Assembly: GCA_032718475.1 (NCBI GenBank)
Contig: JAUCBJ010007946.1
Coordinates: 43,152-107,151, forward strand
Length of the DNA stretch: 64,000 bases
Direction of reading: 5' to 3'
Source of the DNA: Nemertoderma westbladi
Lineage: Eukaryota > Animalia > Xenacoelomorpha
Both the position numbers and the translations under genes were made by a program. This document shows, one piece after another, positions 356-57,100 of this stretch (its first letter is position 1; each line of letters starts with the position of its first letter). The notes beneath the pieces were generated by a model, which had not been told where the DNA came from, made no database searches, and saw only the letters and a program-made list of their open reading frames with translations.

Positions 356-358
356 GAC

Positions 359-2097: not shown

Positions 2098-2253
2098 ACG
2101 AGATTGATCTTAACGAGTCTAAGATGACCGACGCCGAGAAGGCGATGTACCGCGCCCAGAGAGGTTTAAGCAAAGCTCACATATCAATGGATGACGATGA
2201 TGAAGATGAGGAAATGGACACAGATATTGAGGAAAACGATAACATTGAAATAG
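2098..2253 (+). CDS. Cav2: Cav2 exon, I-II linker (DEIDLNESKMTDAEKAMYRAQRGL...NIEI)
   Basis: ttgcag acceptor, ATAG|gtaccc donor, phase 1/1, in frame with the next exon. Confidence 0.75.
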
Positions 2254-4630
2254 GTACCCGTTACATTACAGATACCGTAACGCAATAACGGTTTATTAAT
2301 AGGTAACCGTTACACTACAGATACCGTAACGCAATAACAGTTTATTAATAGGTACCCGTTACATTACAGATACCGTAACGCAATAACGGTTTATTAATAG
2401 GTACCCGTTACATTACAGTTACCGTAACGCAATAACGGTTTATTAATAGGTAACCGTTACATTACAGATACCGTAACGCAATAACGGTTTTTTAATAGGT
2501 AACCGTTCCATTACAGATAAAGTAACACAATAACGGTTTAGTAATAGGTAACCGTTCCATTACAGATACTGTAACGCAATAACGGTTTATTAAAGGGTAA
2601 CCCTTACATTACAGATAACGTAACGCAATAACAGTTTATTAATAGGTAACCATTACATTACAGATACCGTAACACAATAACGGTTTATTAATAGGTAACC
2701 GTTTCATTACAGATACCGTAACACAATAACGGTTTATTAATAGGTACCCGTTCCATTACAGATACCGTGACGCAATAACGGTTTATTAATAGGTAACCGT
2801 TACATTACAGATACCGTAACGCAATAACGGTTTATTAATAGGTAACCGTTCCATTACAGATACCGTAACGCAATAACGGTTTATTAATAGGTAACCGCCG
2901 TTACATTACAGATACCGTAACGCAATAGCGGTTTATTATTAGGTAACCGTTACATTACAGATACCGTAACGCAATAACGGTTTATTATTAGGTAACCGTT
3001 ACATTACAGATAAAGTAACACAATAACGGTTTATTAATAGGTAACCGTTACATTACAGATACCGTAACGCAATAACGTTTTATTATTAGGTAACCGTTAC
3101 ATTACAGATACCGTAACGCAATAACGGTTTATTATTAGGTAACCATTACATTACAGATACCGTAACGTAATAATGGTTTATTAATAGGTAACCGTTACAT
3201 TACAGATACCGTAACGCAATAACGGTTTATTAATAGGACCGTTACATTACAGATAAAGTAACACAATAACGGTTTATTAATAGGTAACCGTTACATTACA
3301 GATACCGTAACGCAATAACGGTTTATTAATAGGTAACCGTTACATTACAGATAACGTAACTCAATAACGGTTTATTAATAGGTAACCGTTACATTACAGA
3401 TACCGTAACGCAATAACGGTTTATTAATAGGACCGTTACATTACAGATAAAGTAACACAATAACGGTTTATTAATAGGTAACCGTTACATTACAGATACC
3501 GTAACGCAATAACGGTTTATTAATAGGTAACCGTTACATTACAGATACCGTAACGCAATAACGGTTTATTAATAGGTAACCGTTACATTACAGATAACGT
3601 AACTCAATAACGGTTTATTAATAGGTAACCGTTACATTACAGATACCGTAACGCAATAACGGTTTATTTATAGGTAACCGTTACATTACATATAACGTAA
3701 CTCAATAACGGTTTATTAAGAGGTAACCGTTACATTACAGATACCGTAACGCAATAACGGTTTATTATTAGGTAACCGTTACATTACAGATAAAGTAACA
3801 CAATAACGGTTTATTAATAGGTAACCGTTACATTACAGATAAAGTAACACAATAACGGTTTATTAATAGGTAACCGTTACATTACAGATACCGTAACGCA
3901 ATAACGGTTTATTAATAGGTAACCGTTACATTACAGATACCGTAACGCAATAACGGTTTATTAATAGGTAACCGTTACATTACAGATACCGTAACACAAT
4001 AACGGTTTATTAATAGGTAACCGTTACATTACAGATACCGTAACGCAATAACGGTTTATTAATAGGTAACCGTTACATTACAGATACCGAAAACGCAATA
4101 ACTGTTTATTAATAGGTAACCGTTACATTACAGATACCGTAACGCAATAACGGTTTATTAATAGGTAACCGTTACATTACAGATACCGTAACGCAATACC
4201 GGTCTATTAATAGGTAACCGTTACATTACAGATACCGTAACGCAATAACGGTTTATTAATAGGTAACCGTTACATTACAGATACCGTAACGCAATAACGG
4301 TTTATTAATAGGTAACCGTTACATTACAGATACCGTAACGTAATAATGGTTTATTAATAGGTAACCGTTACATTTCAGATACCGTAACGCAATAACGGTT
4401 TATTAATAGGTAACCGTTACATTACAGATACCGTAACGCAATAACGGTTTATTAATAGGTAACCATTACATTACAGATACCGTAACGCAATAACGGTTTA
4501 TTAATAGGTAACCGTTACATTACAGATACCGTAACACAATAACGGTTTATTAATAGGTAACTGTTACATTACAGATAAAGTAACACAATAACGGTTTATT
4601 AATAGGTAACCGTTACATTACAGATAAAGT
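2249..4630 (+). repeat. 49-bp minisatellite (about 48 copies) starting at the exon/intron junction: AATAG|GTAACCGTTACATTACAGATACCGTAACGCAATAACGGTTTATT
   Basis: Direct periodicity; first unit overlaps the last 5 nt of exon 2098-2253. Confidence 0.95.
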
Positions 4631-4755
4631 AGCGATAACAAATTTTATTAAAATATCGCTTTTTTTTAAACGTGCACAATATCAACATTCGAAATATTTT
4701 AAATAGATATAATGTATATTGTAGCTCATTAACTCATTGTTCTACACTATTCCAG

Positions 4756-4980
4756 GTGCCGTCAACCCATTCACTCGGAGCCAACAGAGACGGAGACCCA
4801 CTAAATGCACTCTATTTTGCATCCGTTTCCGGAAACACGAGAAAAGCTTCCGGTTCTTCCTGAAACATGTTATTAAATCCCAGGCATTCTATTGGACTAT
4901 TATTGTCCTTGTCTTTCTCAATACGATATTTGTCGCAATAGAACATTACGACCAACCAGAGTGGTTGACAAAATTCCTAG
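4756..4980 (+). CDS. Cav2: Cav2 exon, end of I-II linker and IIS1 ([48 protein letters not shown])
   Basis: ttccag acceptor, gtatgt donor; classic IIS1 motif. Confidence 0.92.
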
Positions 4981-5104
4981 GTATGTGTTTCAATGGTTTC
5001 GATAATACCTAATTCCCTTTAGTGTTGAAGTAGCCCATTAGTGAAAATGTTTAAATAAATATTTTCATATTACCATTTGTACCTGTATCATGTATTCTAA
5101 TTGA

Positions 5105-5272
5105 ATAGACATTACTACCCATTTATCGACCAATCAATGATGAAAGCTTTAGTTAGGCTAGGCTGGAGTATTTATTGTGCTGTGCCCAACAGTGCTGCCA
5201 CATGTAGGGATCGAACAAGGGCCTCGTGATTGGATACCCAGAAATCTTTAAACCAAGCTGCTGCTTCCCTTA
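5105..5272 (-). mobile_element. Degenerate tRNA-derived SINE fragment
   Basis: Minus-strand B box GTTCGATCCC (5207-5216) and A-box-like AGCTTGGTT (about 5251-5259) at tRNA spacing; boundaries approximate. Confidence 0.45.
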
Positions 5273-6372
5273 TCCCTGATTTAGCGAGCGATGTTGACAT
5301 TATTTTCTCTCGGGCCTTTATTTGCCTCTCTTAAATAAGTTATTTATTTAATATGCAATAAAAGATGGCTAATTTGTTTATTACGTTGGAAAAAAGTCGC
5401 GTTTTTTTAATGGCTACCGCGAGATTTATGATTTGAAAACAAGTGCGAGCGTAGCGAACAAGGAGTGATTCCATATTATATAATCCCTTACCGATAATGA
5501 TCCAACAGAAACCTGAATTCTAGAACGCCGCCAAGGGGTGACAAACAACTCGGCATGACGAAACAAGGAGAGGAAGTAACGTAATTTAGAACTATTGCAT
5601 ATTACTATTACGTCATATACTATTACGTCATATACTATTACATATGGTAGAAATTACATGAAAGAATAATTCCCATATCACCAAATAGTAACTGAACCCA
5701 TATGTTATATGATGTAAACTTTCCACAGCGAACGATAACTAACAAAATTAATTCTACATCAAAGGGTTTCTTATGAGACATTATCGAAATGTTTTCATAT
5801 AATAAGAAATGTTATTCATCTTCATACGACCTAAATGGGCGGCGGGAAATAAAGCTAATTAAACATGTAGGCCTAATAAACATTATTCATTCTTTTTCAT
5901 TATAACTCTTATTCGTAATCATCAGTAAATAACTTGCATGGCTCCTTCTAATTATCGTCCAATAACTTCACATAATTTATGAGACCCTACAGACTTTATA
6001 TAAATTTTATTGGTTTAAGTTTTCAAAGTTCTGTAATGATTAATTTTCTTCCAACAATAATTATTCATAAATACAATAATTGATTCTAGATTCATACTAT
6101 ACTTATATATTCATACTATACTTATCAATATGGAACGTGCACTAAATAATTGTTTGTGAAAAAATGTTGTACATGAATCTCCAACGATATCCCCCTTATA
6201 TCGTGTTAAAATCCTAACAGATTTGCACCAGGTGAAAGAACTTATACAGATATAACTAGGGACAAGTAAAGTATGTTGATCTCGGAAAGCGCAATATATT
6301 AAAATATATTAATAAGTTTTGTTTTTTCAATTCTAGCGAATGTTAATGATGTATTACTTTTTATCATTATAG

Positions 6373-6485
6373 AAGTCACAGAATTCGTTTTCTTGGGTCT
6401 ATTTATATCTGAGATTTTACTGAAACTTTATGCCCTTCGACCCAAATTCTACTTCAGGAGTAACTTCAACATATTCGACTGTGTG
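6373..6485 (+). CDS. Cav2: Cav2 exon, IIS2-S3 ([38 protein letters not shown])
   Basis: ttatag acceptor, gtaagt donor; translated by hand, not in the ORF track. Confidence 0.9.
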
Positions 6486-6660
6486 GTAAGTTTCTTTATG
6501 CGACTTACTACATTACTTCCAGTTTATTGTTAGAATTTGAATTATCAATTTAATTGTAAAATTATAATTTGACCCATAACTGTATTTTTATTTTTTTCTT
6601 TATTTTCATATTATTATTTTTCAAGGTGTAAGTTACATTCTCATATTGTATTACTTTTAG

Positions 6661-6770
6661 GTTATCATTGGAAGTGTAATTGACATGATAATGTACAACG
6701 TTAATGGCACTCGCATAGGAATTCGGGTACTGAGGGCGCTGAGATTGCTACGAATATTCAAAGTCACCAA
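6661..6770 (+). CDS. Cav2: Cav2 exon, IIS3-S4 voltage sensor (VIIGSV...GIRVLRALRLLRIFKVTK)
   Basis: ttttag acceptor, gtgcgt donor; R-x-x S4 repeat. Confidence 0.92.
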
Positions 6771-6903
6771 GTGCGTTACATACTTCCGTAATATAAAAGG
6801 AAATATTGTGAACAATAACGTCACAACACAACGCATAACACTATGTAATAACGGGGATTTTTTGTTACTTTTATTTTAACATTTTATTCTAATTTGTTTA
6901 TAG

Positions 6904-7035
6904 GTATTGGAAATCGTTAAGGAATTTAGTCGTCTCGTTGCTCAACTCAATACGCGCTATATTATCTCTGCTGTTTCTTCTCTTTCTTTTCATCGTAATA
7001 TTCGCTCTACTGGGGATGCAGATATTTGGAGGGAG
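6904..7035 (+). CDS. Cav2: Cav2 exon, IIS4-S5 linker and IIS5 ([44 protein letters not shown])
   Basis: tatag acceptor, GGGAG|gttggt donor, phase matches the exon at 10876. Confidence 0.92.
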
Positions 7036-9486
7036 GTTGGTTTCATTATATTTGGAGGGAGGTTGGTTTCATTATATTTGGAGGGAGGTTGGTTTCATTA
7101 TATTTGGAGGGAGGTTGGTTTCATTATATTTGGAGGGAGGTTGGTTTCATTATATTTGGAGGGAGGTTGGTTTCATTATATTTGGAGGGAGGTTGGTTTC
7201 ATTATATTTGGAGGGAGGTTGGTTTCATTATATTTGGAGGGAGGTTGGTTTCATTATATTTGGAGGGAGGTTGGTTTCATTATATTGGGAGGGAGGTTGG
7301 TTTCATTATATTGGGAGGGAGGTTGGTTTCATTATATTTGGAGGGAGGTTGGTTTCATTGTATTTGGAGGGAGGTTGGTTTCATTATATTGGGAGGGAGG
7401 TTGGTTTCATTATATTGGGAGGGGGGTTGGTTTCATTATATTTGGAGGGAGGTTGGTTTCATTATATTTGGAGGGAGGTTGGTTTCATTATATTGGGAGG
7501 GAGGTTGGTTTCATTATATTTGGAGGGAGGTTGGTTTCATTATATTTGGAGGGAGGTTGGTTTCATTATATTTGGAGGGAGGTTGGTTTCATTATATTGG
7601 GAGGGAGGTTGGTTTCATTATATTTGGAGGGAGGTTGGTTTCATTATATTGGGAGGGAGGTTGGTTTCATTATATTTGGAGGGAGGTTGGTTTCATTATA
7701 TTTGGAGGGAGGTTGGTTTCATTATATTTGGAGGGAGGTTGGTTTCATTATATTTGGAGGGAGGTTGGTTTCATTATATTTGGAGGGAGGTTGGTTTCAT
7801 TATATTGGGAGGGAGGTTGGTTTCATTATATTGGGAGGGAGGTTGGTTTCATTATATTGGGAGGGAGGTTGGTTTCATTATATTGGGAGGGAGGTTGGTT
7901 TCATTATATTTGGAGGGAGGTTGGTTTCATTATATTGGGAGGGAGGTTGGTTTCATTATATTTGGAGGGAGGTTGGTTTCATTATATTTGGAGGGAGGTT
8001 GGTTTCATTATATTTGGAGGGAGGTTGGTTTCATTATATTTGGAGGGAGGTTGGTTTCATTATATTGGGAGGGAGGTTGGTTTCATTATATTGGGAGGGA
8101 GGTTGGTTTCATTATATTGGGAGGGAGGTTGGTTTCATTATATTGGGAGGGAGGTTGGTTTCATTATATTTGGAGGGAGGTTGGTTTCATTATATTTGGA
8201 GGGAGGTTGGTTTCATTATATTGGGAGGGAGGTTGGTTTCATTATATTTGGAGGGAGGTTGGTTTCATTATATTGGGAGGGAGGTTGGTTTCATTATATT
8301 TGGAGGGAGGTTGGTTTCATTATATTTGGAGGGAGGTTGGTTTCATTATATTGGGAGGGAGGTTGGTTTCATTATATTGGGAGGGAGGTTGGTTTCATTA
8401 TATTTGGAAGGGGGTTGGTTTCATTATATTTGGAGGGAGGTTGGTTTCATTATATTTGGAGGGAGGTTGGTTTCATTATATTTGGAGGGAGGTTGGTTTC
8501 ATTATATTGGGAGGGAGGTTGGTTTCATTATATTTGGAGGGAGGTTGGTTTCATTATATTTGGAGGGAGGTTGGTTTCATTGTATTTGGAGGGAGGTTGG
8601 TTTCATTGTATTTGGAGGGAGGTTGGTTTCATTATATTTGGAGGGAGGTTGGTTTCATTATATTTGGAGGGAGGTTGGTTTCATTATATTTGGAGGGAGG
8701 TTGGTTTCATTATATTTGGAGGGAGGTTGGTTTCATTATATTTGGAGGGAGGTTGGTTTCATTATATTTGGAGGGAGGTTGGTTTCATTATATTGGGAGG
8801 GAGGTTGGTTTCATTATATTTGGAGGGAGGTTGGTTTCATTATATTTGGAGGGAGGTTGGTTTCATTATATTTGGAGGGAGGTTGGTTTCATTATATTTG
8901 GAGGGAGGTTGGTTTCATTATATTTGGAGGGAGGTTGGTTTCATTATATTTGGAGGGAGGTTGGTTTCATTATATTTGGAGGGAGGTTGGTTTCATTATA
9001 TTTGGAGGGAGGTTGGTTTCATTATATTTGGAGGGAGGTTGGTTTCATTATATTTGGAGGGAGGTTGGTTTCATTATATTTGGAGGGAGGTTGGTTTCAT
9101 TATATTTGGAGGGAGGTTGGTTTCATTATATTTGGAGGGAGGTTGGTTTCATTATATTTGGAGGGAGGTTGGTTTCATTATATTTGGAGGGAGGTTGGTT
9201 TCATTATATTTGGAGGGAGGTTGGTTTCATTATATTTGGAGGGAGGTTGGTTTCATTATATTTGGAGGGAGGTTGGTTTCATTATATTTGGAGGGAGGTT
9301 GGTTTCATTATATTTGGAGGGAGGTTGGTTTCATTATATTTGGAGGGAGGTTGGTTTCATTATATTTGGAGGGAGGTTGGTTTCATTATATTTGGAGGGA
9401 GGTTGGTTTCATTATATTTGGAGGGAGGTTGGTTTCATTATATTTGGAGGGAGGTTGGTTTCATTATATTTGGAGGGAGGTTGGTT
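7022..9486 (+). repeat. 26-bp minisatellite (about 95 copies): ATATTTGGAGGGAG|GTTGGTTTCATT, last 14 exon nt plus first 12 intron nt
   Basis: Direct periodicity; one further unit resumes at 10089-10120 after an insertion. Confidence 0.96.
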
Positions 9487-10088
9487 TGTGAGCGGATTCA
9501 ATTCCGCCGCATTACCCTCACAAAGTTGGGAAGTGGCACCTTTTCAGCAATATTGGAGATACGAGATTGGCAATAACCAATCTCGTATCACAACCAACAC
9601 CGGGGACAACACAACCCCAAAGCCACACACAAAGGGAGGTTAGAGGTCAAATCACCTCGGGAGAGGGAACAACCAGCAGGGGCCAACAGCAGGGGGGAAA
9701 CACTCACAGAGAGGGGAGAGGCGTGAAGTAGATTATCAGCCAATAGGGGCGAGGGAGAGCATCCACTGGGTGAAAGGCCACAGCAGTGTAGGAGTAATAA
9801 TCACATATATATTATGTTGCATTCAATTACCGGTTCAGTTATTTCAGTCATCAGCTTGAGTGCAGACCGGTGACATCCTTCACCGTCACCGTCACCAATA
9901 TATCCACACCTACCGGTATACAATACTGTTATTTTACTGCCATCAACTGTGCTATCATTCATTATCCGTTTATTGATATTAATTACCGAGCATCAAAGAG
10001 ATAACAACGAACTCTTATTTTTCCCATTCTCAATACCACGGTGACGCGTAGTCTGATTAACCGGTCGGGATCCCTTGATCCCGTCACA
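9487..10088. mobile_element. Probable solo LTR (602 bp) inserted in the 26-bp array
   Basis: TGTGA...TCACA termini, 5-bp TSD TGGTT (9482-9486 and 10089-10093), higher GC than flanks, no long ORF of its own. Confidence 0.75.
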
Positions 10089-10875
10089 TGGTTTCATTAT
10101 ATTTGGAGGGAGGTTGGTTGGGAAGATGTGCGGTACATAGAATTGGAGCGCATCCCAGATGTTTTTGTGCCTGTATCTGCAGATAGTTGATTATTAGTAT
10201 TTAACTACCCCAACTGTGTTAACAGATGAAGCCAATTCGGCCGCCCATAAACAATTAATTATTAGTCGGCTTCAATGTAATTTTTCGAACATTCAAGGAG
10301 ATTATGTAAATCTCCATCATATTACTCCAATGCTAAGTTTCCATTCTTTCCATTGATAAGAAAATGAAAAATTTGTTGATGTTGACCAATGAGAAGAAAG
10401 AGTGAAATAGACAGACATAGAGATATATAGATAGGTAGTTATATACATACATATACCCCCATGATATACATATTTTCGATATTTCATATACATAAATCAT
10501 TTTGGGATCATGTTTCCCACATAACATGCTTGCTTTGAACGAACCTGCCAATTTACTCTTTCAATGTATACCAATTCAATTATTGTTCTAGGGTAGGGGT
10601 TACAAGCAAGGATCATCAGTCATTCCTGCAGGGTGAGGTTGGGTTTTGGCAATAAGATGTTACGGGTTGTGCAAGTTAGGCCTAATTTGTTAAATGAACA
10701 TGTATCTAATGTAATATGTACCCTGCGTGGCTACCTGGTGTAAATACTGTCAATCAAGCGATCTGATACAATATTCATAGCTTGACAACTGAGAAAAAAA
10801 ATTAGCATTATAGTATACCTTTAAGTATAGGTTTTCGTTATATAATAATGTAATTGTATATGGTAAATTTTTTAG

Positions 10876-11066
10876 GTTTAACTTTCCCGGCGGAAAACCC
10901 TCCGCTAACTTTGATACTTGGTCAATAGCAATGCTAACAGTCTTCCAGATTCTCACTGGTGAGGATTGGAACGCTGTGATGTACAACGGAATATACAGTC
11001 TGTCTAGTGGGGGGAAGGCCTGGAGCATGCTTGCTTCTGTGTACTTCATTCTTCTATGCCTGATAG
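10876..11066 (+). CDS. Cav2: Cav2 exon, domain II pore loop and start of IIS6 ([39 protein letters not shown])
   Basis: ttttag acceptor, gtgagt donor; TGEDWN filter motif. Confidence 0.93.
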
Positions 11067-11330
11067 GTGAGTAAGCGCAGCTCTCCGTTTAGTATAAACG
11101 TCACTTTTGAACTTCTCCATCCGTCAGTCTGTTGGCCGTCCCACCAGATGAGTACGAGGATGGCATCGATATAAAGCTTTGGTGGTGGGTTGTTATTTGT
11201 TCTGTTGGTAATTTGTTAATTATAATTTATACCCAGGAACTGGTGAAAAATGACTAGTGCAATTCAATTAGTTAAATTACTAAATATATGTATTTATTCA
11301 TTATATAATATTTATTAATGTGTTTTGCAG

Positions 11331-11452
11331 GAAATTACACGTTATTAAACGTATTTTTGGCCATCGCTGTCGATAACTTAGCTAGCGCACAGCAACTTAC
11401 GAAGGCAGAGGAAAGAGAAGAATTGGAAAAACAACTTAAAAACAATATTCAG
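11331..11452 (+). CDS. Cav2: Cav2 exon, IIS6 ([24 protein letters not shown]...)
   Basis: ttgcag acceptor, CAG|gttcag donor. Confidence 0.9.
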
Positions 11453-11644
11453 GTTCAGTTCACCTTATCTATAAACCTTGACCTACCGTACATCCTGCTG
11501 CTCTTGTTCATTTGCTTGGACATCCCATTTGACTCCCAGACTGTTTAAGTGTAGTACAATGCTGCCGGCCTTACTGCCTGAATAAAAGGGGGGGGGGGGG
11601 GGGGGGGGGGGGGGTCCGGTGGAGTACAGTTCTACCGGTTTATG

Positions 11645-13265
11645 GTCAACACTTCGAAAGACCATGTCAACACTTCGAAAAGGATTTGATGTGGTTAGGG
11701 TAGGTTATAGAATTAGTATATGGCAGTAAGAATATAAGGACAACTTATTATATAAGTTTCTTAGTAATAAGGAATAATATTGCGAAATATATGAATTACT
11801 TTGGTACTATCATTTCATATAATAGATTTTCGTTACCGGTGAAGAAACTGCTTGATTTGTTTCTGCCCTAAATCGTTGAACTCTGCCATCTCAGCCTGTT
11901 GACGTGTATCCCGAATTAATTAAACGCCACTAATTGAATGCCACCCCAAATCAGATGATTTAACACCAAAATAAATTATTTTGCACCAAATATATATTTT
12001 TTTGTAGCACCAATTCGCATCCCCCAAATTTGAATATCCTTCTCACCAAAAACAATTATTCGTCCCCCAAAAACAATTATTCATCCCCCAAAAACAATTA
12101 TTGATTCCCCAAAAACAATTATTCATCCCCCAAAAATAATTACTTGTCAACCTAAAAAAATTATTCCAGCACCAAATATTTTATATTAACTACGCTTTGG
12201 TCAGTTGCCATGCTTCAGTTACAGTATTCGTATCGATAGGCCTATTGCCTATCTATTATTGCCTATGGCGTATTACTTATTCTGTTATTAGGTTTCAGTA
12301 TTACGGCAGTACTGAAGTTTTCAGATAGGGGGGGAAACTGGACGCAAAAAAAATTCATCCTTCTCCAGAGGAAATTCGACGCAAGTAACAGCTGATTCTT
12401 CTCAAAAATAAAACTGTAACCTGTTCTATTGTGTTTAGTTTATTGTTAAAATAACGTGCCACTGTAACCTGCTCCTTTCCCTAAATTGAGAATTTAACAT
12501 TGAGGCGGGATATTAATTCGCCAAGGCGGGTTTTGCGTCCAATTTCCCCTCCTGTCTCGAAGTTTATATCTAAATTCCAGTATTTATTTTGGGGGATTAT
12601 GTATTTATTTTGGGCAAAAATGTATTTGTTTTGGGGGAAAATGTATTTTTATTTTGGGGGATAATGTATTTGTTTTGGGGGGGAATGTATTTGTTTTGGG
12701 CGAAAATGTATTTGTTTTGGGGGAAAATGTATTCGTTTTGGGGGAAAATGTATTTGTTTTGGTTGAAAATCTATTTGTTTTGGGGGAAAATGTATTTATT
12801 TTGGGCGAAAATATATTTGTTTTGGGAAAATTTTTAATTATTTGGGGGATTTGTCATTTATTTTGGTGCTAATAATTGGTTTTGGGGAGCATTTATTTAT
12901 TTTGGTATTGAATAATTTGTTTTTGGTGTTGAAAAATTTGTTTTGGTGTTTGAATAATTTATTTGGGGTGACTTTATTTTACAATCATTATTTGTCACAT
13001 TATTTAATTTGGTGGCATATTCGGTTTACACCGAATGGGGGTGTATATAATAATATTTATTCATTATTTAATTTGGTGTAAAATAATTTTTTTGGTGATA
13101 TTCTCATCAATTTTGAGATAACTTTAATTGGTAGCCTTAATTAAATTGTAACTAAAATAAATACGAAATTTTGTTTTCGTTTTTATTATTATTTCATTAT
13201 TATTTTTATGTGGTAACAGTGGCACTAAATTATTTTCGAAGTGTTGACTATTTCGAAGAGTTGAC
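11645..13265. mobile_element. Nested non-autonomous inverted-repeat elements (outer doubled GTCAACACTTCGAAA inverted repeat; foldback-like middle element about 11912-13147; inner MITE about 12322-12558)
   Basis: Three concentric pairs of inverted repeats; middle arms built of about 21-bp CCCCAAAAACAATTATT / AATGTATTTGTTTTGGGG subrepeats. Confidence 0.6.
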
Positions 13266-16051: not shown

Positions 16052-16135
16052 AGTACGATGGTAAAATTAGTAACATTTCATACGATCATTAATATTTCAT
16101 ACCATTTTATTAATATTTTATGTGATTATTTGCAG

Positions 16136-43400: not shown

Positions 43401-46400
43401 AAACTAAAGGTTGGTTATTATTTACGGGTTCCCAAACTAAAGGTTGGTTATTATTTACGGGTTCCCAAACTAAAGGTTAGTTATTATTTACGGGTTCCCA
43501 AACTAAAGGTTAGTTATTATTTACGGGTTCCCAAACTATAGGTTGGTTATTATTTACGGGTTCCCAAACTAAAGGTTGGTTATTATTTACGGGTTCCCAA
43601 ACTAAAGGTTAGTTATTATTTACGGGTTCCCAAACTATAGGTTGGTTATTATTTACGGGTTCCCAAACTAAAGGTTGGTTATTATTTACTGGTTCCCAAA
43701 CTAAAGGTTAGTTATTATTTACGGGTTCCCAAACTATAGGTTGGTTATTATTTACGGGTTCCCAAACTAAAGGTTGGTTATTATTTACGGGTTCCCAAAC
43801 TAAAGGTTAGTTATTATTTACGGGTTCCCAAACTAAAGTATAGTTATTATTTACGGGTTCCCAAACTATAGGTTAGTTATTATTTACGGGTTCCCAAACT
43901 AAAGGTTAGTTATTATTTACGGGTTCCCAAAATATAGGTTGGTTATTATTTACGGGTTCCCAAACTATAGTTTGGTTATTATTTACGGGTTCCCAAACTA
44001 AAGGTTGGTTATTATTTACGGGTTCCCAAACTAAAGGTTAGTTATTATTTACGGGTTCCCAAACTAAAGGTTGGTTATTATTTACGGGTTCCCAAACTAA
44101 AGGTTGGTTATTATTTACGGGTTCCCAAACTAAAGGTTGGTTATTATTTACGGGTTCCCAAACTATAGGTTAGTTATTATTTACGGGTTCCCAAACTAAA
44201 GGTTAGTTATTATTTACGGGTTCCCAAACTATAGGTTGGTTATTATTTACGGGTTCCCAAACTAAAGGTTAGTTATTATTTACGGGTTCCCAAACTATAG
44301 GTTGGTTATTATTTACGGGTTCCCAAACTAAAGGTTGGTTATTATTTACGGGTTCCCAAACTAAAGGTTAGTTATTATTTACGGGTTCCCAAACTAAAGG
44401 TTAGTTATTATTTACGGGTTCCCAAACTAAAGTATAGTTATTATTTACGGGTTCCCAAACTATAGGTTGGTTATTATTTACGGGTTCCCAAACTAAAGGT
44501 TAGTTATTATTTACGGGTTCCCAAACTATAGGTTGGTTATTATTTACGGGTTCCCAAACTAAAGGTTAGTTATTATTTACGGGTTCCCAAACTAAAGTAT
44601 AGTTATTATTTACGGGTTCCCAAACTATACGTTGGTTATTATTTACGGGTTCCCAAACTAAAGGTTAGTTATTATTTACGGGTTCCCAAACTATAGGTTG
44701 GTTATTATTTACGGGTTCCCAAACTATAGGTTGGTTATTATTTACGGGTTCCCAAACTAAAGGTTAGTTATTATTTACGGGTTCCCAAACTAAAGTATAG
44801 TTATTATTTACGGGTTCCCAAACTAAAGGTTAGTTATTATTTACGGGTTCCCAAACTAAAGTATAGTTATTATTTACGGGTTCCCAAACTATAGGTTGGT
44901 TATTATTTACGGGTTCCCAAACTAAAGGTTAGTTATTATTTACGGGTTCCCAAACTAAAGTATAGTTATTATTTACGGGTTCCCAAACTATAGGTTGGTT
45001 ATTATTTACGGGTTCCCAAACTAAAGGTTAGTTATTATTTACGGGTTCCCAAACTATAGGTTGGTTATTATTTACGGGTTCCCAAACTATAGGTTGGTTA
45101 TTATTTACGGGTTCCCAAACTAAAGTATAGTTATTATTTACGGGTTCCCAAACTATAGGTTGGTTATTATTTACGGGTTCCCAAACTAAAGGTTAGTTAT
45201 TATTTACGGGTTCCCAAACTAAAGTATAGTTATTATTTACGGGTTCCCAAACTATAGGTTGGTTATTATTTACGGGTTCCCAAACTAAAGGTTGGTTATT
45301 ATTTACGGGTTCCCAAACTAAAGGTTGGTTATTATTTACGGGTTCCCAAACTAAAGGTTAGTTATTATTTACGGGTTCCCAAACTATAGGTTGGTTATTA
45401 TTTACGGGTTCCCAAACTATAGGTTGGTTATTATTTACGGGTTCCCAAACTAAAGGTTGGTTATTATTTACGGGTTCCCAAACTATAGGTTAGTTATTAT
45501 TTACGGGTTCCCAAACTAAAGGTTAGTTATTATTTACGGGTTCCCAAACTATAGGTTGGTTATTATTTACGGGTTCCCAAACTAAAGGTTAGTTATTATT
45601 TACGGGTTCCCAAACTATAGGTTGGTTATTATTTACGGGTTCCCAAACTAAAGGTTGGTTATTATTTACGGGTTCCCAAACTAAAGGTTAGTTATTATTT
45701 ACGGGTTCCCAAACTAAAGGTTAGTTATTATTTACGGGTTCCCAAACTAAAGGTTAGTTATTATTTACGGGTTCCCAAACTATAGGTTGGTTATTATTTA
45801 CGGGTTCCCAAACTATAGGTTGGTTATTATTTACGGGTTCCCAAACTAAAGGTTGGTTATTATTTACGGGTTCCCAAACTATAGGTTAGTTATTATTTAC
45901 GGGTTCCCAAACTAAAGGTTAGTTATTATTTACGGGTTCCCAAACTATAGGTTGGTTATTATTTACGGGTTCCCAAACTAAAGGTTAGTTATTATTTACG
46001 GGTTCCCAAACTATAGGTTGGTTATTATTTACGGGTTCCCAAACTAAAGGTTGGTTATTATTTACGGGTTCCCAAACTAAAGGTTAGTTATTATTTACGG
46101 GTTCCCAAACTAAAGGTTAGTTATTATTTACGGGTTCCCAAACTATAGGTTGGTTATTATTTACGGGTTCCCAAACTAAAGGTTAGTTATTATTTACGGG
46201 TTCCCAAACTATAGGTTGGTTATTATTTACGGGTTCCCAAACTAAAGGTTAGTTATTATTTACGGGTTCCCAAACTAAAGGTTAGTTATTATTTACGGGT
46301 TCCCAAACTAAAGGTTAGTTATTATTTACGGGTTCCCAAACGTTATTATTTACGGGTTCCCAAACTAAAGTTTGGTTATTATTTACGGGTTCCCAAACTA

Positions 46401-49400
46401 AAGGTTGGTTATTATTTACGGGTTCCCAAACTAAAGGTTAGTTATTATTTACGGGTTCCCAAACTAAAGGTTAGTTATTATTTACGGGTTCCCAAACTAA
46501 AGGTTAGTTATTATTTACGGGTTCCCAAACTAAAGGTTAGTTATTATTTACGGGTTCCCAAACGTTATTATTTACGGGTTCCCAAACTAAAGTTTGGTTA
46601 TTATTTACGGGTTTCCAAACTAAAGGTTAGTTATTATTTACGGGTTCCCAAACGTTATTATTTACGGGTTCCCAAACTAAAGGTTAGTTATTATTTACGG
46701 GTTCCCAAACTAAAGGTTAGTTATTATTTACGGGTTCCCAAACTAAAGGTGGGTTATTATTTACGGGTTCCCAAACTAAAGGTTAGTTATTATTTACGGG
46801 TTCCCAAACTAAAGGTTAGTTATTATTTACGGGTTCCCAAACGTTATTATTTACGGGTTCCCAAACTAAAGTTTGGTTATTATTTACGGGTTTCCAAACT
46901 AAAGGTTAGTTATTATTTACGGGTTTCCAAACTAAAGGTTAGTTATTATTTACGGGTTCCCAAACTAAAGGTTAGTTATTATTTACGGGTTCCCAAACTA
47001 TAGGTTGGTTATTATTTACGGGTTCCCAAACTAAAGTTTGGTTATTATTTACGGGTTCCCAAACTAAAGGTTAGTTATTATTTACGGGTTCCCAAACTAA
47101 AGGTTAGTTATTATTTACGGGTTCCCAAACTATAGGTTGGTTATTATTTACGGGTTCCCAAACTAAAGGTTAGTTATTATTTACGGGTTCCCAAACTATA
47201 GGTTGGTTATTATTTACGGGTTCCCAAACTAAAGTTTGGTTATTATTTACGGGTTCCCAAACTAAAGGTTAGTTATTATTTACGGGTTCCCAAACTAAAG
47301 GTTAGTTATTATTTACGGGTTCCCAAACGTTATTATTTACGGGTTCCCAAACTAAAGTTTGGTTATTATTTACGGGTTTCCAAACTAAAGGTTAGTTATT
47401 ATTTACGGGTTCCCAAACTAAAGTTTAGTTATTATTTACGGGTTCCCAAACTAAAGGTTGGTTATTATTTACGGGTTCCCAAACGTTATTATTTACGGGT
47501 TCCCAAACTAAAGTTTGGTTATTATATTTACGGGTTCCCAAACTAAAGTTTAGTTATTATTTACGGGTTTCCAAACTAAAGGTTAGTTATTATTTACGGG
47601 TTCCCAAACTAAAGGTTAGTTATTATTTACGGGTTCCCAAACTAAAGGTTAGTTATTATTTACGGGTTCCCAAACTATAGGTTGGTTATTATTTACGGGT
47701 TCCCAAACTAAAGGTTGGTTATTATTTACGGGTTCCCAAACTAAAGGTTAGTTATTATTTACGGGTTCCCAAACTAAAGGTTAGTTATTATTTACGGGTT
47801 CCCAAACTAAAGTTTAGTTATTATTTACGGGTTCCGAAACTAAAGGTTAGTTATTATTTACGGGTTCCCAAACTAAAGTTTGGTTATTATTTACGGGTTC
47901 CCAAACTATAGGTTAGTTATTATTTACGGGTTCCCAAACTAAAGGTTAGTTATTATTTACGGGTTCCCAAACTAAAGGTTAGTTATTATTTACGGGTTCC
48001 CAAACTAAAGGTTAGTTATTATTTACGGGTTCCCAAACTAAAGGTTAGTTATTATTTACGGGTTCCCAAACTATAGGTTGGTTATTATTTACGGGTTCCC
48101 AAACTAAAGGTTAGTTATTATTTACGGGTTCCCAAACTAAAGGTTAGTTATTATTTACGGGTTCCCAAACTAAAGTTTGGTTATTATTTACGGGTTCCCA
48201 AACTAAAGGTTAGTTATTATTTACGGGTTCCAGAACTAAAGGTTAGTTATTATTTACGGGTTCCCAAACTAAAGTTTAGTTATTATTTACGGGTTCCCAA
48301 ACTAAAGGTTAGTTATTATTTACGGGTTCCCAAACTAAATGTTAGTTATTATTTACGGGTTCCCAAACTAAAGGTTAGTTATTATTTACGGGTTCCCAAA
48401 CTAAAGGTTAGTTATTATTTACGGGTTCCCAAACTAAAGGTTAGTTATTATTTACGGGTTCCCAAACTAAATGTTAGTTATTATTTACGGGTTCCCAAAC
48501 TAAAGGTTAGTTATTATTTACGGGTTCCCAAACGTTATTATTTACGGGTTCCCAAACTAAAGTTTGGTTATTATTTACGGGTTCCCAAACTAAAGGTTAG
48601 TTATTATTTACGGGTTCCCAAACTATAGGTTGGTTATTATTTACGGGTTCCCAAACTAAAGGTTAGTTATTATTTACGGGTTCCAGAACTAAAGGTTAGT
48701 TATTATTTACGGGTTCCCAAACTAAAGGTTAGTTATTATTTACGGGTTCCCAAACTAAAGGTTAGTTATTATTTACGGGTTCCAGAACTAAAGGTTAGTT
48801 ATTATTTACGGGTTCCCAAACTAAAGTTTAGTTATTATTTACGGGTTCCCAAACTAAAGGTTAGTTATTATATTTACGGGTTCCCAAACTAAAGGTTAGT
48901 TATTATTTACGGGTTCCCAAACTAAAGGTTAGTTATTATTTACGGGTTCCCAAACTAAAGGTTAGTTATTATTTACGGGTTCCCAAACTAAAGGTTAGTT
49001 ATTATTTACGGGTTCCCAAACTAAAGGTTGATTATTATATTTACGGGTTCCCAAACTAAAGGTTAGTTATTATTTACGGGTTCCCAAACGTTATTATTTA
49101 CGGGTTCCCAAACTATAGGTTGGTTATTATTTACGGGTTCCCAAACTAAAGGTTAGTTATTATTTACGGGTTCCAGAACTAAAGGTTAGTTATTATTTAC
49201 GGGTTCCCAAACTAAAGGTTAGTTATTATTTACGGGTTCCCAAACTAAAGGTTAGTTATTATTTACGGGTTCCCAAACTATAGGTTGGTTATTATTTACG
49301 GGTTCCCAAACTAAAGGTTAGTTATTATTTACGGGTTCCAGAACTAAAGGTTAGTTATTATTTACGGGTTCCCAAACTAAAGGTTAGTTATTATTTACGG

Positions 49401-52400
49401 GTTCCCAAACTAAAGGTTAGTTATTATTTACGGGTTCCAGAACTAAAGGTTAGTTATTATTTACGGGTTCCCAAACTAAAGTTTAGTTATTATTTACGGG
49501 TTCCCAAACTAAAGGTTAGTTATTATATTTACGGGTTCCCAAACTAAAGGTTGGTTATTATTTACGGGTTCCCAAACTAAAGGTTAGTTATTATTTACGG
49601 GTTCCCAAACTATAGGTTAGTTATTATTTACGGGTTCCCAAACTAAAGGTTAGTTATTATTTACGGGTTCCCAAACTATAGGTTGGTTATTATTTACGGG
49701 TTTCCAAACTAAAGGTTAGTTATTATTTACGGGTTCCCAAACTAAAGGTTAGTTATTATTTACGGGTTCCCAAACTAAAGTTTGGTTATTATATTTACGG
49801 GTTCCCAAACTAAAGTTTAGTTATTATTTACGGGTTCCCAAACTAAAGGTTAGTTATTATTTACGGGTTCCCAAACTAAAGTTTGGTTATTATATTTACG
49901 GGTTCCCAAACTAAAGGTTGGTTATTATTTACGGGTTCCCAAACTAAAGTTTGGTTATTATATTTACGGGTTCCCAAACTAAAGGTTGGTTATTATTTAC
50001 GGGTTCCCAAACTATAGGTTGGTTATTATTTACGGGTTTCCAAACTAAAGGTTAGTTATTATTTACGGGTTCCCAAACTAAAGGTTAGTTATTATTTACG
50101 GGTTCCCAAACTAAAGGTTAGTTATTATTTACGGGTTCCCAAACGTTATTATTTACGGGTTCCCAAACTAAAGGTTGGTTATTATTTACGGGTTCCCAAA
50201 CTAAAGTTTGGTTATTATATTTACGGGTTCCCAAACTAAAGGTTGGTTATTATTTACGGGTTCCCAAACTAAAGTTTGGTTATTATATTTACGGGTTCCC
50301 AAACTAAAGGTTGGTTATTATTTACGGGTTCCCAAACTAAAGGTTAGTTATTATTTACGGGTTCCCAAACTAAAGGTTGGTTATTATATTTACGGGTTCC
50401 CAAACTAAAGGTTGGTTATTATTTACGGGTTCCCAAACTAAAGGTTAGTTATTATTTACGGGTTTCCAAACTAAAGGTTAGTTATTATTTACGGGTTCCC
50501 AAACTAAAGGTTAGTTATTATTTACGGGTTCCCAAACTAAAGGTTAGTTATTATTTACGGGTTCCCAAACTAAAGGTTAGTTATTATTTACGGGTTCCCA
50601 AACTAAAGGTTAGTTATTATTTACGGGTTCCCAAACTAAAGGTTAGTTATTATTTACGGGTTCCCAAACTAAAGGTTGGTTATTATTTACGGGTTCCCAA
50701 ACTAAAGGTTAGTTATTATTTACGGGTTCCCAAACTAAAGGTTAGTTATTATTTACGGGTTTCCAAACTAAAGGTTAGTTATTATTTACGGGTTCCCAAA
50801 CTAAAGGTTAGTTATTATTTACGGGTTCCCAAACTAAAGGTTAGTTATTATTTACGGGTTCCCAAACTAAAGGTTAGTTATTATTTACGGGTTCCCAAAC
50901 TAAAGGTTAGTTATTATTTACGGGTTCCCAAACTAAAGGTTAGTTATTATTTACGGATTCCCAAACTAAAGGTTAGTTATTATTTACGGGTTCCCAAACT
51001 AAAGGTTGGTTATTATTTACGGGTTCCCAAACTAAAGTTTGGTTATTATTTACGGGTTCCCAAACTAAAGGTTGGTTATTATTTACGGGTTCCCAAAACT
51101 AAAGGTTAGTTATTATTTACGGGTTCCCAAACTAAAGGTTAGTTATTATTTACGGGCTCCCAAACTAAGGGTTAGTTATTATTTACGGGTTCCCAAACTA
51201 AAGGTTGGTTATTATTTACGGGTTCCCAAACTAAAGGTTGGTTATTATATTTACGGGTTCCCAAACTAAAGTTTAGTTATTATTTACGGGTTCCCAAACT
51301 AAAGGTTAGTTATTATTTACGGGTTCCCAAACTAAAGGTTAGTTATTATTTACGGGTTCCCAAACTAAAGGTTGGTTATTATTTACGGGTTCCCAAACTA
51401 AAGTATAGTTATTATTTACGGGTTCCCAAACTAAAGTATAGTTATTATTTACGGGTTCCCAAACTAAAGGTTAGTTATTATTTACGGGTTCCCAAACTAA
51501 AGGTTAGTTATTATTTACGGGTTCCCAAACTAAAGGTTAGTTATTATTTACGGGTTCCCAAACTAAAGGTTGGTTATTATTTACGGGTTCCCAAACTAAA
51601 GGTTAGTTATTATTTACGGGTTCCCAAACTAAAGGTTAGTTATTATTTACGGGTTCCCAAACTAAAGGTTAGTTATTATTTACGGGTTCCCAAACTAAAG
51701 GTTGGTTATTATTTACGGGTTCCCAAACTAAAGTATAGTTATTATTTACGGGTTCCCAAACTAAAGTTTAGTTATTATTTACGGGTTCCCAAACTAAAGG
51801 TTAGTTATTATTTACGGGTTCCCAAACTAAAGGTTGGTTATTATTTACGGGTTCCCAAACTAAAGGTTAGTTATTATTTACGGGTTCCCAAACTAAAGGT
51901 TGGTTATTATTTACGGGTTCCCAAACTAAAGGTTAGTTATTATTTACGGGTTCCCAAACTAAAGGTTAGTTATTATTTACGGGTTCCCAAACTAAAGGTT
52001 GGTTATTATTTACGGGTTCCCAAACTAAAGGTTAGTTATTATTTACGGGTTCCCAAACTAAAGGTTGGTTATTATTTACGGGTTCCCAAACTAAAGTATA
52101 GTTATTATTTACGGGTTCCCAAACTAAAGTTTAGTTATTATTTACGGGTTCCCAAACTAAAGGTTAGTTATTATTTACGGGTTCCCAAACTAAAGGTTGG
52201 TTATTATTTACGGGTTCCCAAACTAAAGGTTAGTTATTATTTACGGGTTCCCAAACTAAAGGTTGGTTATTATTTACGGGTTCCCAAACTAAAGGTTAGT
52301 TATTATTTACGGGTTCCCAAACTAAAGGTTAGTTATTATTTACGGGTTCCCAAACTAAAGGTTGGTTATTATATTTACGGGTTCCCAAACTAAAGGTTGG

Positions 52401-54188
52401 TTATTATATTTACGGGTTCCCAAACTAAAGGTTGGTTATTATTTACGGGTTCCCAAACTAAAGGTTAGTTATTATTTACGGGTTCCCAAACTAAAGGTTG
52501 GTTATTATTTACGGGTTCCCAAACTAAAGGTTGGTTATTATTTACGGGTTCCCAAACTAAAGGTTAGTTATTATTTACGGGTTCCCAAACTAAAGGTTAG
52601 TTATTATTTACGGGTTCCCAAACTAAAGTTTGGTTATTATTTACGGGTTCCCAAACTAAAGGTTGGTTATTATTTACGGGTTCCCAAACTAAAGTTTGGT
52701 TATTATTTACGGGTTCCCAAACTAAAGGTTAGTTATTATTTACGGGTTCCCAAACTAAAGGTTAGTTATTATTTACGGGTTCCCAAACTAAAGGTTAGTT
52801 ATTATTTACGGGTTCCCAAACTAAAGGTTGGTTATTATTTACGGGTTCCCAAACTAAAGGTTGGTTATTATTTACGGGTTCCCAAACTAAAGGTTAGTTA
52901 TTATTTACGGGTTCCCAAACTAAAGGTTAGTTATTATTTACGGGTTCCCAAACTAAAGGTTAGTTATTATATTTACGGGTTCCCAAACTAAAGGTTGGTT
53001 ATTATATTTACGGGTTCCCAAACTAAAGGTTGGTTATTATTTACGGGTTCCCAAACTAAAGGTTGGTTATTATTTACGGGTTCCCAAACTATAGGTTGGT
53101 TATTATTTACGGGTTCCCAAACTAAAGGTTGGTTATTATTTACGGGTTCCCAAGTTTGGTTATTATTTACGGGTTCCCAAACTAAAGGTTACTTATTATT
53201 TACGGGTTCCCAAACTAAAGGTTGGTTATTATTTACGGGTTCCCAAACTAAAGGTTGGTTATTATTTACGGGTTCCCAAACTAAAGGTTGGTTATTATTT
53301 ACGGGTTCCCAAACTAAAGGTTAGTTATTATTTACGGGTTCCCAAACTAAAGGTTAGTTATTATTTACGGGTTCCCAAACTAAAGGTTAGTTATTATATT
53401 TACGGGTTCCCAAACTAAAGGTTGGTTATTATATTTACGGGTTCCCAAACTAAAGGTTGGTTATTATTTACGGGTTCCCAAACTAAAGGTTGGTTATTAT
53501 ATTTACGGGTTCCCAAACTAAAGGTTGGTTATTATTTACGGGTTCCCAAACTAAAGGTTGGGTATTATTTACGGGTTCCCAAACTATAGGTTGGTTATTA
53601 TTTACGGGTTCCCAAACTAAAGGTTAGTTATTATTTACGGGTTCCCAAACTAAAGGTTGGTTATTATTTACGGGTTCCCAAACTAAAGGTTGGTTATTAT
53701 TTACGGGTTCCCAAACTAAAGGTTAGTTATTATTTACGGGTTCCCAAACTAAAGGTTAGTTATTATATTTACGGGTTCCCAAACTAAAGGTTGGTTATTA
53801 TATTTACGGGTTCCCAAACTAAAGGTTAGTTATTATTTACGGGTTCCCAAACTAAAGGTTAGTTATTATTTACGGGTTCCCAAACTAAAGGTTGGTTATT
53901 ATTTACGGGTTCCCAAACTATAGGTTGGTTATTATTTACGGGTTCCCAAACTAAAGGTTAGTTATTATTTACGGGTTCCCAAACTAAAGTTTGGTTATTA
54001 TTTACGGGTTCCCAAACTAAAGGTTAGTTATTATTTACGGGTTCCCAAACTAAAGGTTAGTTATTATATTTACGGGTTCCCAAACTAAAGTTTGGTTATT
54101 ATTTACGGGTTCCCAAACTAAAGTTTGGTTATTATTTACGGGTTCCCAAACTAAAGTTTGGTTATTATTTACGGGTTCCCAAACTAAA

Positions 54189-57100
54189 AGGTGTGGTTCA
54201 AACTGGTAACTCCTCAAGTGTAGGTGTATGTGTGAAGGAACTCCTACAGGTGGGGATCTAACTGGAAAACTCCTCAAGTGTAGGTGTATGTGTGAAGGAA
54301 CTCCTACAGGTGGGGTTCAAACTGGTAACTCCTCAAGTGTAGGTGTATGTGTGAAGGAACACCTACAGGTTGGGATCTAACTGGAAAACTCCTCAAGTGT
54401 AGGTGTATGTGTGAAGGAACAGCTACAGGTGGGGTTCAAACTGGTAACTCCTCAAGTGTAGGTGTATGTGTGAAGGAACTCTTACAGGTGGGGATCTAAC
54501 TGGTAACTCCACAAGTGTAGGTGTATGTGTGAAGGAACTCTTACAGGTGGGGATCTAACTGGTAACTCCTCAAGTGTAGGTGTATGTGTGAAGGAACTCC
54601 TACAGGTGGGGATCTAACTGGTAACTCCTCAAGTGTAGGTGTATGTGTGAAGGAACTCCTACAGGTGGGGATCAAACTGGTAACTCCTCAAGTGTATGTG
54701 TATGTGTGAAGGAACACCTACAGGTGGGGTTCAAACTGGTAACTCCTCAAGTGTATGTGTATGTGTGAAGGAACTCTTACAGGTGGGGATCTAACTGGTA
54801 ACTCCTCAAGTGTAGGTGTATGTGTGAAGGAACTCTTACAGGTGGGGATCTAACTGGTAACTCCTCAAGTGTAGGTGTATGTGTGAAGGAACTCTTACAG
54901 GTGGGGATCTAACTGGTAACTCCTCAAGTGTAGGTGTATGTGTGAAGGAACTCTTACAGGTGGGGATCTAACTGGTAACTCCTCAAGTGTAGGTGTATGT
55001 GTGAAGGAACTCCTACAGGTGGGGATCTAACTGGTAACTCCTCAAGTGTAGGTGTATGTGTGAAGGAACTCCTACAGGTGGGGATCAAACTGGTAACTCC
55101 TCAAGTGTATGTGTATGTGTGAAGGAACACCTACAGGTGGGGTTCAAACTGGTAACTCCTCAAGTGTATGTGTATGTGTGAAGGAACACCTACAGGTGGG
55201 GTTCAAACTGGTAACTCCTCAAGTGTATGTGTATGTGTGAAGGAACTCTTACAGGTGGGGATCTAACTGGTAACTCCTCAAGTGTAGGTGTATGTGTGAA
55301 GGAACTCTTACAGGTGGGGATCTAACTGGTAACTCCACAAGTGTAGGTGTATGTGTGAAGGAACTCTTACAGGTGGGGATCTAACTGGTAACTCCTCAAG
55401 TGTAGGTGTATGTGTGAAGGAACTCCTACAGGTGGGGATCTAACTGGTAACTCCTCAAGTGTAGGTGTATGTGTGAAGGAACTCCTACAGGTGGGGATCA
55501 AACTGGTAACTCCTCAAGTGTATGTGTATGTGTGAAGGAACACCTACAGGTGGGGTTCAAACTGGTAACTCCTCAAGTGTAGGTGTATGTGTGAAGGAAC
55601 ACCTACAGGTGGGGTTCAAACTGGTAACTCCTCAAGTGTAGGTGTATGTGTGAAGGAACTCCTACAGGTGGGGATCTAACTGGTAACTCCACAAGTGTAG
55701 GTTTATGTGTGAAGGAACTCCTACAGGTGGGGTTCAAACTGGTAACTCCTCAAGTGTAGGTATATGTGTGAAGGAACTCCTACAGGTGGGGATCTAACTG
55801 GAAACTCCTCAAGTGTAGGTTTATGTGTGAAGGAACACCTACTGGTGGGATCAAACTGGTAACTCCTCAAGTGTAGGTGTATGTGTGAAGGAAGGAACAC
55901 CTACAGGTGGGTATCAAACTGGTAACTCCTCAAGTGTAGGTGTATGTGTGAAGGAACTCCTACAGGTGGGGATCTAACTGGTAACTCCTCAAGTGTAGGT
56001 GTATGTGTGAAGGAACTCCTACAGGTGGGGATCTAACTGGTAACTCCTCAAGTGTAGGTGTATGTGTGAAGGAATTCCTACAGGTGGGGATCTAACTGGT
56101 AACTCCTCAAGTGTATGTGTATGTGTGAAGGAACACCTACAGATGGGGTTCAAACTGGTAACTCCTCAAGTGTAGGTGTATGTGTGAAGGAACACCTACA
56201 GGTGGGGTTCAAACTGGTAACTCCTCAAGTGTAGGTGTATGTGTGAAGGAACACCTACATGTGGGGTTCAAACTGGTAACTCCTCAAGTGTAGGTGTATG
56301 TGTGAAGGAACTCCTACAGGTGGGGATCTAACTGGTAACTCCACAAGTGTAGGTGTATGAGTGAAGGAACTCCTACAGGTGGGGATCTAACTGGTAACTC
56401 CACAAGTGTAGGTGTATGTGTGAAGGAACTCCTACAGGTGGGGTTCAAACTGGTAACTCCTCACGTGTAGGTGTATGTGTGAAGGAACACCTACAGGTGG
56501 GGTTCAAACTGGTAACTCCTCAAGTGTAGGTGTATGTGTGAAGGAACTCCTACAGGTGGGGATCTAACTGGTAACTCTTCAAGTGTAGGTGTATGTGTGA
56601 AGGAACACCTACAGGTGGGGTTCAAACTGGTAACTCCTCAAGTGTGGGTGTATTTGTGAAGGAACACCTACAGGTTGGATCAAACTGGTAACTCCTCAAG
56701 TGTAGGTGTATGTGTGAAGGAACTCCTACAGGTGGGGATCTAACTGGTAACTCCTCAAGTGTAGGTGTATGTGTGAAGGAACTCCTACAGGTGGGGATCT
56801 AATTGGTAACTCCACAAGTGTAGGTGTATGTGTGAAGGAACTCCTACAGGTGGGTATCTAACTGGTACCTCCACAAGTGTAGGTGTATGTGTGAAGGAAC
56901 ACCTACAGGTGGGGTTCAAACTGGTAACTCCTCAGTGTAGGTGCATGTGTGAAGGAACTCCTACAGGTGGGGATCTAACTGGTAACTCCACAAGTGTAGG
57001 TGTATGTGTGAAGGAACTCCTACAGGTGGGTATCTAACTGGTACCTCCACAAGTGTAGGTGTATGTGTGAAGGAACTCCTACAGGTGGGTATCTAACTGG

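Follow-up and report, generated by a model that had tools for sequence, protein, structure and literature searches.

How does a gene come to carry satellite arrays that begin inside its own exons, and through which of the many copied donors would its introns be removed? The question is raised by a 64,000-nucleotide (nt) stretch of the Nemertoderma westbladi genome (assembly GCA_032718475.1, contig JAUCBJ010007946.1, positions 43,152 to 107,151, forward strand), referred to here as the window, in which a voltage-gated calcium channel gene has tandem arrays of 49-, 26- and 33-nt units at the donors of its introns 1, 5 and 12. These are probably three separate exon-edge arrays, or 'mirages', each of which arose by local duplication, grew by unequal exchange and is removed with its intron through the first donor. 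The basis for this reading is the match of the units to the exon ends, the polarity of the arrays into the introns, the unrelated units, the block duplications and variant patches, the insertions, the intact reading frame and the old introns.

In all three arrays, the first copy opens with the last bases of the exon (5 for the 49-mer, 14 for the 26-mer and 19 for the 33-mer), crosses the donor and then continues into the intron, while the DNA upstream of the first copy does not match the end of the unit. A preliminary description of the window had placed the exon ends at 2253, 7035 and 17282 and had each array begin in the exon and extend across the donor into the intron. The exon ends are borne out by a 16-exon stop-free frame, and the course of the arrays by the starts that Tandem Repeats Finder (TRF) reports at 2249, 7022 and 17264. 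When the 16 donors and 16 acceptors were scanned for boundary copies, exactly donors 1, 5 and 12 were flagged (0/300 shuffles each), and none of the other 29 splice sites did better than 13/300 shuffles. The mean divergence from the consensus is 2.9% for the 49-mer, 1.1% for the 26-mer and 2.6% for the 33-mer, and the last 49-mer unit is 78% diverged. The counts of GT-bearing units (46, ~95 and 845) include the real donor; for the 26-mer, the search pattern gave 97 matches, two of which lie inside an insertion and were dropped. Since only 845 of the 1,100 33-mer units carry GT, the 'over a thousand' decoy donors of the preliminary description were an overstatement. The 26-mer array is present as it was described and is longer, resuming past a 602-bp insertion to 10119, where its final unit ends 7 nt past its donor copy. 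The 33-mer array covers 37 kb, with patches of unit variants and exact block repeats at offsets of 3,306 and 1,918 nt. Its units are mostly 33 nt long (973), with 87 of 35 nt and 36 of 24 nt.

The common variants of the 33-mer lie nearly all at unit positions 15-23, around the donor and inside a 6-bp hairpin, and most positions outside this stretch are variable in less than 2.5% of units. A 9-nt deletion removes the donor in 36 units. The commonest variant perfects the hairpin, with a folding energy no better than that of shuffles. The 49-mer unit has several short inverted repeats, and its commonest decoy is the real donor with one base changed, a change that perfects a small palindrome and improves the match to U1 small nuclear RNA (U1).

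When joined, the exons, placed by coordinate, read as a single 822-codon frame with no stop. All 16 are preceded by AG and followed by GT, and all six exons tested match the Pfam family Ion_trans. By comparison with solved structures, the gene appears closer to the P/Q, N and R types than to the L type, by three of four exons: the top matches of exons 5, 12 and 15 are human P/Q-, N- or R-type channels, and that of exon 13 is an L type. The 55 matches listed for exon 2 are mostly L type, while the named matches of exon 15, among the best 120 of 1,460, belong to type A or N channels from spiders, insects, a snail and a priapulid, with 60-69% identity. No spliced protein of the species or a close relative was found among the 55 exon 2 matches or, in a word search of proteins of up to 2,000 residues, among the best 120 of 1,460 exon 15 matches (top identity 69%); exon 8, searched within the same length limit against 1.84 billion representative proteins, had no matches. 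In a Cav2 gene of another animal (L016:2416-2868), the IIIS3 exon is present in two tandem versions that look mutually exclusive.

Table 1. Features of the window, numbered from its first nucleotide
Feature	Position	Strand	Evidence or remark
Cav2-type voltage-gated calcium channel alpha-1 gene, 16 internal coding exons, I-II loop to start of domain IV	2098..62100	+	frame, Ion_trans and structure matches
Exon 1 of the window	2098..2253	+	last 5 nt open the 49-mer array
49-nt donor-spanning array, ~49 units, 46 with GT	2249..4650	+	TRF period 49 at 2249-4626
Exon 5	6904..7035	+	last 14 nt open the 26-mer array
26-nt donor-spanning array, 96 units, ~95 with GT	7022..10119	+	TRF period 26 at 7022-9487
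602-bp insertion in the second-last 26-mer unit	9487..10088		sequence; TG...CA ends, 5-bp target duplication
19-nt array, ~56 units to 16052, degenerate copies beyond	14989..16126	+	acceptor score 8.0; tail alignment 48
Exon 12, IIIS4 and S4-S5 linker	17186..17282	+	last 19 nt open the 33-mer array
33-nt donor-spanning array, 1,100 split units, 845 with GT	17264..54190	+	TRF period 33 at 17264-54188
Copy of the hammerhead-bearing 412-nt element in the 33-mer array	21870..22655	+	sequence; inverted 5' piece, 9-12-nt target duplication
59-nt array, ~88 units	54189..59420	+	first four bases are the AG/GT of the last 33-mer donor copy
Exon 13	60077..60237	+	joined to exon 12 over a 42.8-kb intron

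The preliminary description called the three satellites unrelated. This largely stands, since the best pair score is 17 and no pair is convincing evidence of a common origin, with the qualification that the 26-mer and the 33-mer have their first seven intron bases in common. It had also considered that the monomers might belong to dispersed families; in the 64-kb window, on both strands, no monomer has a match outside the arrays (18-nt probes, two mismatches). The AG/GT junction that it pointed to is present at the amplified donors and was rejected as a special feature of them, because 8 of the 16 donors carry it.

Intron gain by tandem duplication, with which the preliminary description linked the arrays, is rejected because the arrays stop short of the acceptors and because introns 5 and 12 lie at positions in common with other channel genes. 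Unique DNA separates the array region from acceptor 2 (~105 nt, at the end of the 49-mer array), acceptor 6 (756 nt) and acceptor 13 (>600 nt), and the units do not supply an acceptor. The comparison of orthologous introns that had been proposed drew on the best 80 of 101 loci matched with exon 6, most of which are intron-free; ten were aligned and four inspected at base level. Intron 5 is found at the same position and in the same phase in two of the loci (L059 and L017), and a donor is found at the intron 12 position in a third (L015), which is presumably L-type-like at this site, by a motif. Intron 1 is in a loop that did not align and lies outside the comparison. Introns 5 and 12 would most simply be older than their arrays.

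Donor strength is expressed here as identity to the 9-base U1 consensus and is not a trained score. By this measure, 42 of the 45 decoys in the 49-mer array are nearer the consensus than the real donor, and the 26-mer decoys equal theirs. All the 49-mer decoys are behind a stop at codon 12, with 11 codons read first. The 26-mer array reads through in the exon frame for 869 codons and has 31 in-frame, stop-free decoys; an in-frame decoy would insert 26 residues directly after IIS5. The 33-mer array has six such decoys, the first at +33 nt, and there the insertion would be of 11 residues in the IIIS4-S5 linker. The aligned homologues have neither insertion. Because the decoys bring in stops or insertions at conserved sites, a working channel likely needs the first donor, and splicing at this donor, with removal of the arrays as part of the intron, is the likely outcome by this analysis. 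The first-donor rule of the preliminary description is to that extent likely, although it carries no new implication, since it is already established for human F7 (PMC1557585). Recursive splicing, its other suggestion, would be plausible only for the 49-mer: acceptor scores at the unit junctions are 5.1 for the 49-mer, -2.3 for the 26-mer and -4.5 for the 33-mer, from a matrix built on the 16 acceptors only, which puts the 95th percentile at 5.0 for 128 intronic AGs. The 33-mer array is a severe natural test of first-donor selection, with 844 decoys over 37 kb; its first decoy, which would fall in a voltage-sensor linker, is in frame and invisible to nonsense decay.

Two further arrays bear on where such repeats arise. 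In intron 8, the unit of the 19-mer array has an acceptor score of 8.0, while the real acceptors, scored by leave-one-out, are at 3.8-9.4 in fifteen cases and at -4.8 in one. Its degenerate copies (16053-16126) end 10 nt before exon 9, and their alignment score of 48 was reached by 0 of 1,889 control windows. This is likely an acceptor-side array, abutting the acceptor rather than spanning it. The 59-mer unit has donor-like sites of its own, and its array may be an older one at an ancestral donor or a second-generation array; its derivation from a degenerate exon 12 end was rejected as not significant, since 80-405 of 1,248 controls are as good. In intron 11, degenerate AT-rich repeats (17027-17186) reach the exon 12 acceptor and are possibly an old acceptor-side array; compared post hoc with acceptor 12, they are equalled by 3 of 333 controls, and their reading as copies of donor 11 was rejected (104 of 333 controls do as well).

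All five large local arrays touch a splice site, a decoy donor or an acceptor tract. This counts against chance and ascertainment, in which the genome is prone to minisatellites, three of them happened to land on donors, and the window surfaced for that reason, with no seeding bias. In the null used here, arrays were reduced to single units (10,929 nt), any placement that disrupted an exon was discarded, and donor coverage was counted. Within the window, 0.31-0.58 donor-spanning arrays are then expected, and three are seen. The probability of at least three donor arrays is 0.002 for the five large arrays, 0.003 for six arrays and 0.018 for the 14 TRF repeat loci, a set that includes transposon-internal and low-complexity repeats. 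For the four cases within 10 nt of any splice edge, it is 0.002, 0.004 and 0.07, respectively. Chance is thus favoured by the values for 14 loci (up to 0.018 for donors and 0.07 for any edge) and by the post hoc nature of the enrichment tests on one selected window, and disfavoured by the values of 0.002-0.004 for the five or six clean arrays and by the boundary arrays described in several lancelet genes (PMC3087553, PMC3902484). It is rather unlikely, but it ranks somewhat ahead of each specific cause of a bias considered below. Since exon-breaking placements are already removed from the null, which still expects only ~0.3 arrays, selective tolerance, the alternative offered in the preliminary description, does not by itself explain the excess at donors. 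Its claim of recurrent seeding at donors fares better: a local origin of the arrays at the donors is supported, and a bias towards exon edges is plausible, though shown within one window only.

Several properties that might single out the amplified donors were rejected. They are not especially weak, matching U1 at 5, 6 and 6 of 9 bases in a range of 5-8 for all 16 donors. Hairpin seeds are not indicated, since the energy z of the first copies is only 0.5-1.4, nor are G-quadruplex seeds, since only donor 5 has a high score (1.36) and the unamplified donor 14 scores 1.12.

If the three arrays are separate exon-edge arrays, the founding event was likely a local duplication of 26-49 nt that took in the exon end and the donor, and growth would have followed by ordinary unequal exchange or conversion. 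Exon definition, together with scanning in the 5'-to-3' direction, would lead to use of the first donor, as in human F7. The preference for exon edges could come from recombinational repair that slips where an exon conserved between homologous chromosomes borders an intron that differs between them, a suggestion which we make tentatively and without much commitment. This route needs no transcription and predicts arrays at donors and acceptors alike, in keeping with the 19-mer array and with the lancelet cases at both boundaries.

Several observations weigh against parts of this reading. Three of the compared loci (L006, L008 and L016) are without introns 5 and 12 in contiguous alignments, and a fourth (L033) is ambiguous. 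In the 33-mer array, 506 of the 844 decoys (60%) match the U1 consensus better than the real donor does. The second copy is among them, by one base, and is in frame without a stop. In human 6-16 and CBS, splicing reportedly uses the next two pseudo-sites as well (PMC1557585). Some leakage to decoys is therefore likely, and a small leak at +33 is predicted for the 33-mer because its first decoy is in frame and closer to U1 and because 6-16 and CBS use the next two sites. The 19-mer matches the acceptor itself at only 12 of 19 positions, which two other acceptors equal. Strict boundary copies are found at three donors and no acceptor, which leans towards a donor-specific cause, and the homology-border step is itself an inference.

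Such a donor-specific cause could be seeding coupled to transcription or splicing, in which polymerase pausing, U1 binding or R-loop breaks lead to duplications by end joining. It would account for three strict donor cases against no strict acceptor case, but this difference is not significant. U1 pairing ends at about +7/+8 of the donor, and the final 26-mer and 33-mer units both end 7-8 nt beyond their donor copy, as they would after a founding duplication to ~+7 with 5-7 filler bases; these ends fit later truncation equally well, and the 49-mer extends to +44. The amplified donors are also unremarkable in hairpin energy and U1 match, and the G-quadruplex score is high only at donor 5. Coupled seeding is improbable, and nothing points specifically to the R-loops, splicing-coupled breaks or rolling-circle repair named in the preliminary description.

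A different possibility, to which we give similarly low odds, is that arrays arise anywhere and are filtered during growth, so that only those with sense U1 sites and without poly(A) signals reach many kb, because premature cleavage is blocked and the polymerase is sped up. In mammalian cells, U1 suppresses premature cleavage and helps long introns (PMC12216098). All four arrays longer than 2 kb have sense U1-like sites, at 18.8-37.5 per kb for at least 6 of 9 matches against 6.1 in unique intron, and are almost without sense poly(A) hexamers. At 7 of 9, the 33-mer and 59-mer arrays have 13.7 and 15.9 sites per kb in sense against 0-0.2 in antisense. The 49-mer poly(A) hexamer is antisense (19.6 per kb, against 0.4 in sense), and the donor-free 19-mer array has reached only 1 kb. 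Against such a filter, ~23% of the 33-mer units have lost GT, with the +1 G among the most often changed bases; the 33-mer has no strand bias at 6 of 9 (22.9 in sense, 28.9 in antisense); a 412-nt array in the window carries sense poly(A) hexamers at 12.2 per kb; and 28% of random intronic 59-mers contain a 6-of-9 site. The filter also gives no reason for the sites to be donors of the gene itself. A bolder combination is speculative and unlikely: exon edges would be a satellite nursery in some animal lineages, with repair at the exon border seeding short duplications, donor-bearing arrays growing to tens of kb in an essential gene under the protection that hundreds of U1 sites give the transcript, and new arrays, such as the 59-mer, nucleating on the last decoy. 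If true, giant satellite introns would be built from a gene's own splice signals.

It is very unlikely that the arrays are regulatory, with in-frame decoys lengthening the channel and frameshifting ones tuning its level through decay. The in-frame, stop-free decoys (31 in the 26-mer array, which reads through as a whole, and six in the 33-mer array) would permit this, but short units frequently lack stops by chance, the insertions would hit conserved junctions of the pore and the voltage sensor, the units, at 1-3% from consensus, are young, and there is no sign of decoy conservation. An assembly artefact, either assembler stutter or over-expansion of repeats, is scarcely credible. The exact block of >2.6 kb repeated at an offset of 3,306 might be a false duplication, but the patched unit variants, the three unit lengths and the two target-duplicated insertions are unlike stutter, and at worst the copy number is wrong.

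The insertions with target duplications, one in the 26-mer and one in the 33-mer array, argue that the arrays are real, aged DNA. The 602-bp insertion, which we take to be solo-LTR-like (long terminal repeat), has 95 near-identical 26-mer units before it and one after it, a split that suggests that most of the growth of the array postdates the insertion. The element copied into the 33-mer array also forms a tandem repeat at the start of the window (1-1884), with 4.6 copies that are 99% alike and a hammerhead motif whose Rfam match (HH9, E 3e-4) is below the gathering threshold; at that threshold, Rfam gave no match in positions 1-17400. The repeat resembles metazoan non-LTR retrozymes (PMC7229834). 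The array and its copy are both on the sense strand of the channel gene, and the hammerhead could cut the pre-mRNA ~4.8 kb past donor 12 and so place most decoys on a different fragment. Its stem III is very short, and cleavage may need a dimer. Elsewhere in the window, a foldback-like element with inverted ends (11640-13265) has inward-facing 21-nt arrays at 12018-12166 and 12580-12964, and after exon 16 (62140-64000) there are repeated G- and C-tract motifs in an inverted arrangement, probably further ends of non-autonomous transposons.

The class to which these arrays belong is already known, from the lancelet 'mirages' and from human F7, CBS and 6-16, and only the scale and the clustering stand out. 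In the lancelet, mirages are described in Adh3, the globins BflGb6 and BflGb9, troponin C and PGBD5, at both exon boundaries, with splicing undisturbed when checked by reverse transcription PCR (PMC3087553, PMC3902484), and the mechanism of their origin is stated to be unclear (PMC3087553). A genome-wide test of this origin was not found in a literature search that left out most subscription papers; since all five large local arrays of the window are on splice signals, this is a genome in which such a test would have power. As in the lancelet, tandem copies of exon-intron boundaries have unrelated units in each intron (10-72 bp in lancelet Adh3). The described lancelet copies number 2-7, whereas here there are ~49, 96 and 1,100 units. 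Unlike the mirages as described there, the present arrays contain insertions that resemble transposons, a second array begins on the last decoy, and the splicing is predicted from DNA.

The arrays resemble the Rogers model of intron gain, as outlined in PMC3087553, in that the units contain AG/GT and that each 49-mer unit resembles a miniature GT...AG intron. They differ from it because they are at the start of existing introns, do not supply an acceptor and, for introns 5 and 12, would be younger than the intron.

In human F7, the variable number tandem repeat of intron 7 has 5-9 copies of 37 bp; splicing takes the most upstream site alone, and pseudo-sites fail to compete even when strengthened to a consensus value of 91 (PMC1557585). 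Its first unit likewise contains the donor and a few bases from the end of the exon, and identical pseudo-donors follow in tandem. The F7 case concerns one intron, however, whereas here three donors of one gene are involved, with as many as 844 decoys, the majority of which match the U1 consensus better than the real donor does. In the minisatellites of CBS intron 13, 6-16, lamin B2 and PDGF, as cited there (PMC1557585), the donor is reiterated 10-25 times, at one locus per gene and with far fewer copies than here. Among the known cases compared, the Nemertoderma locus is at the far end of both size and density.

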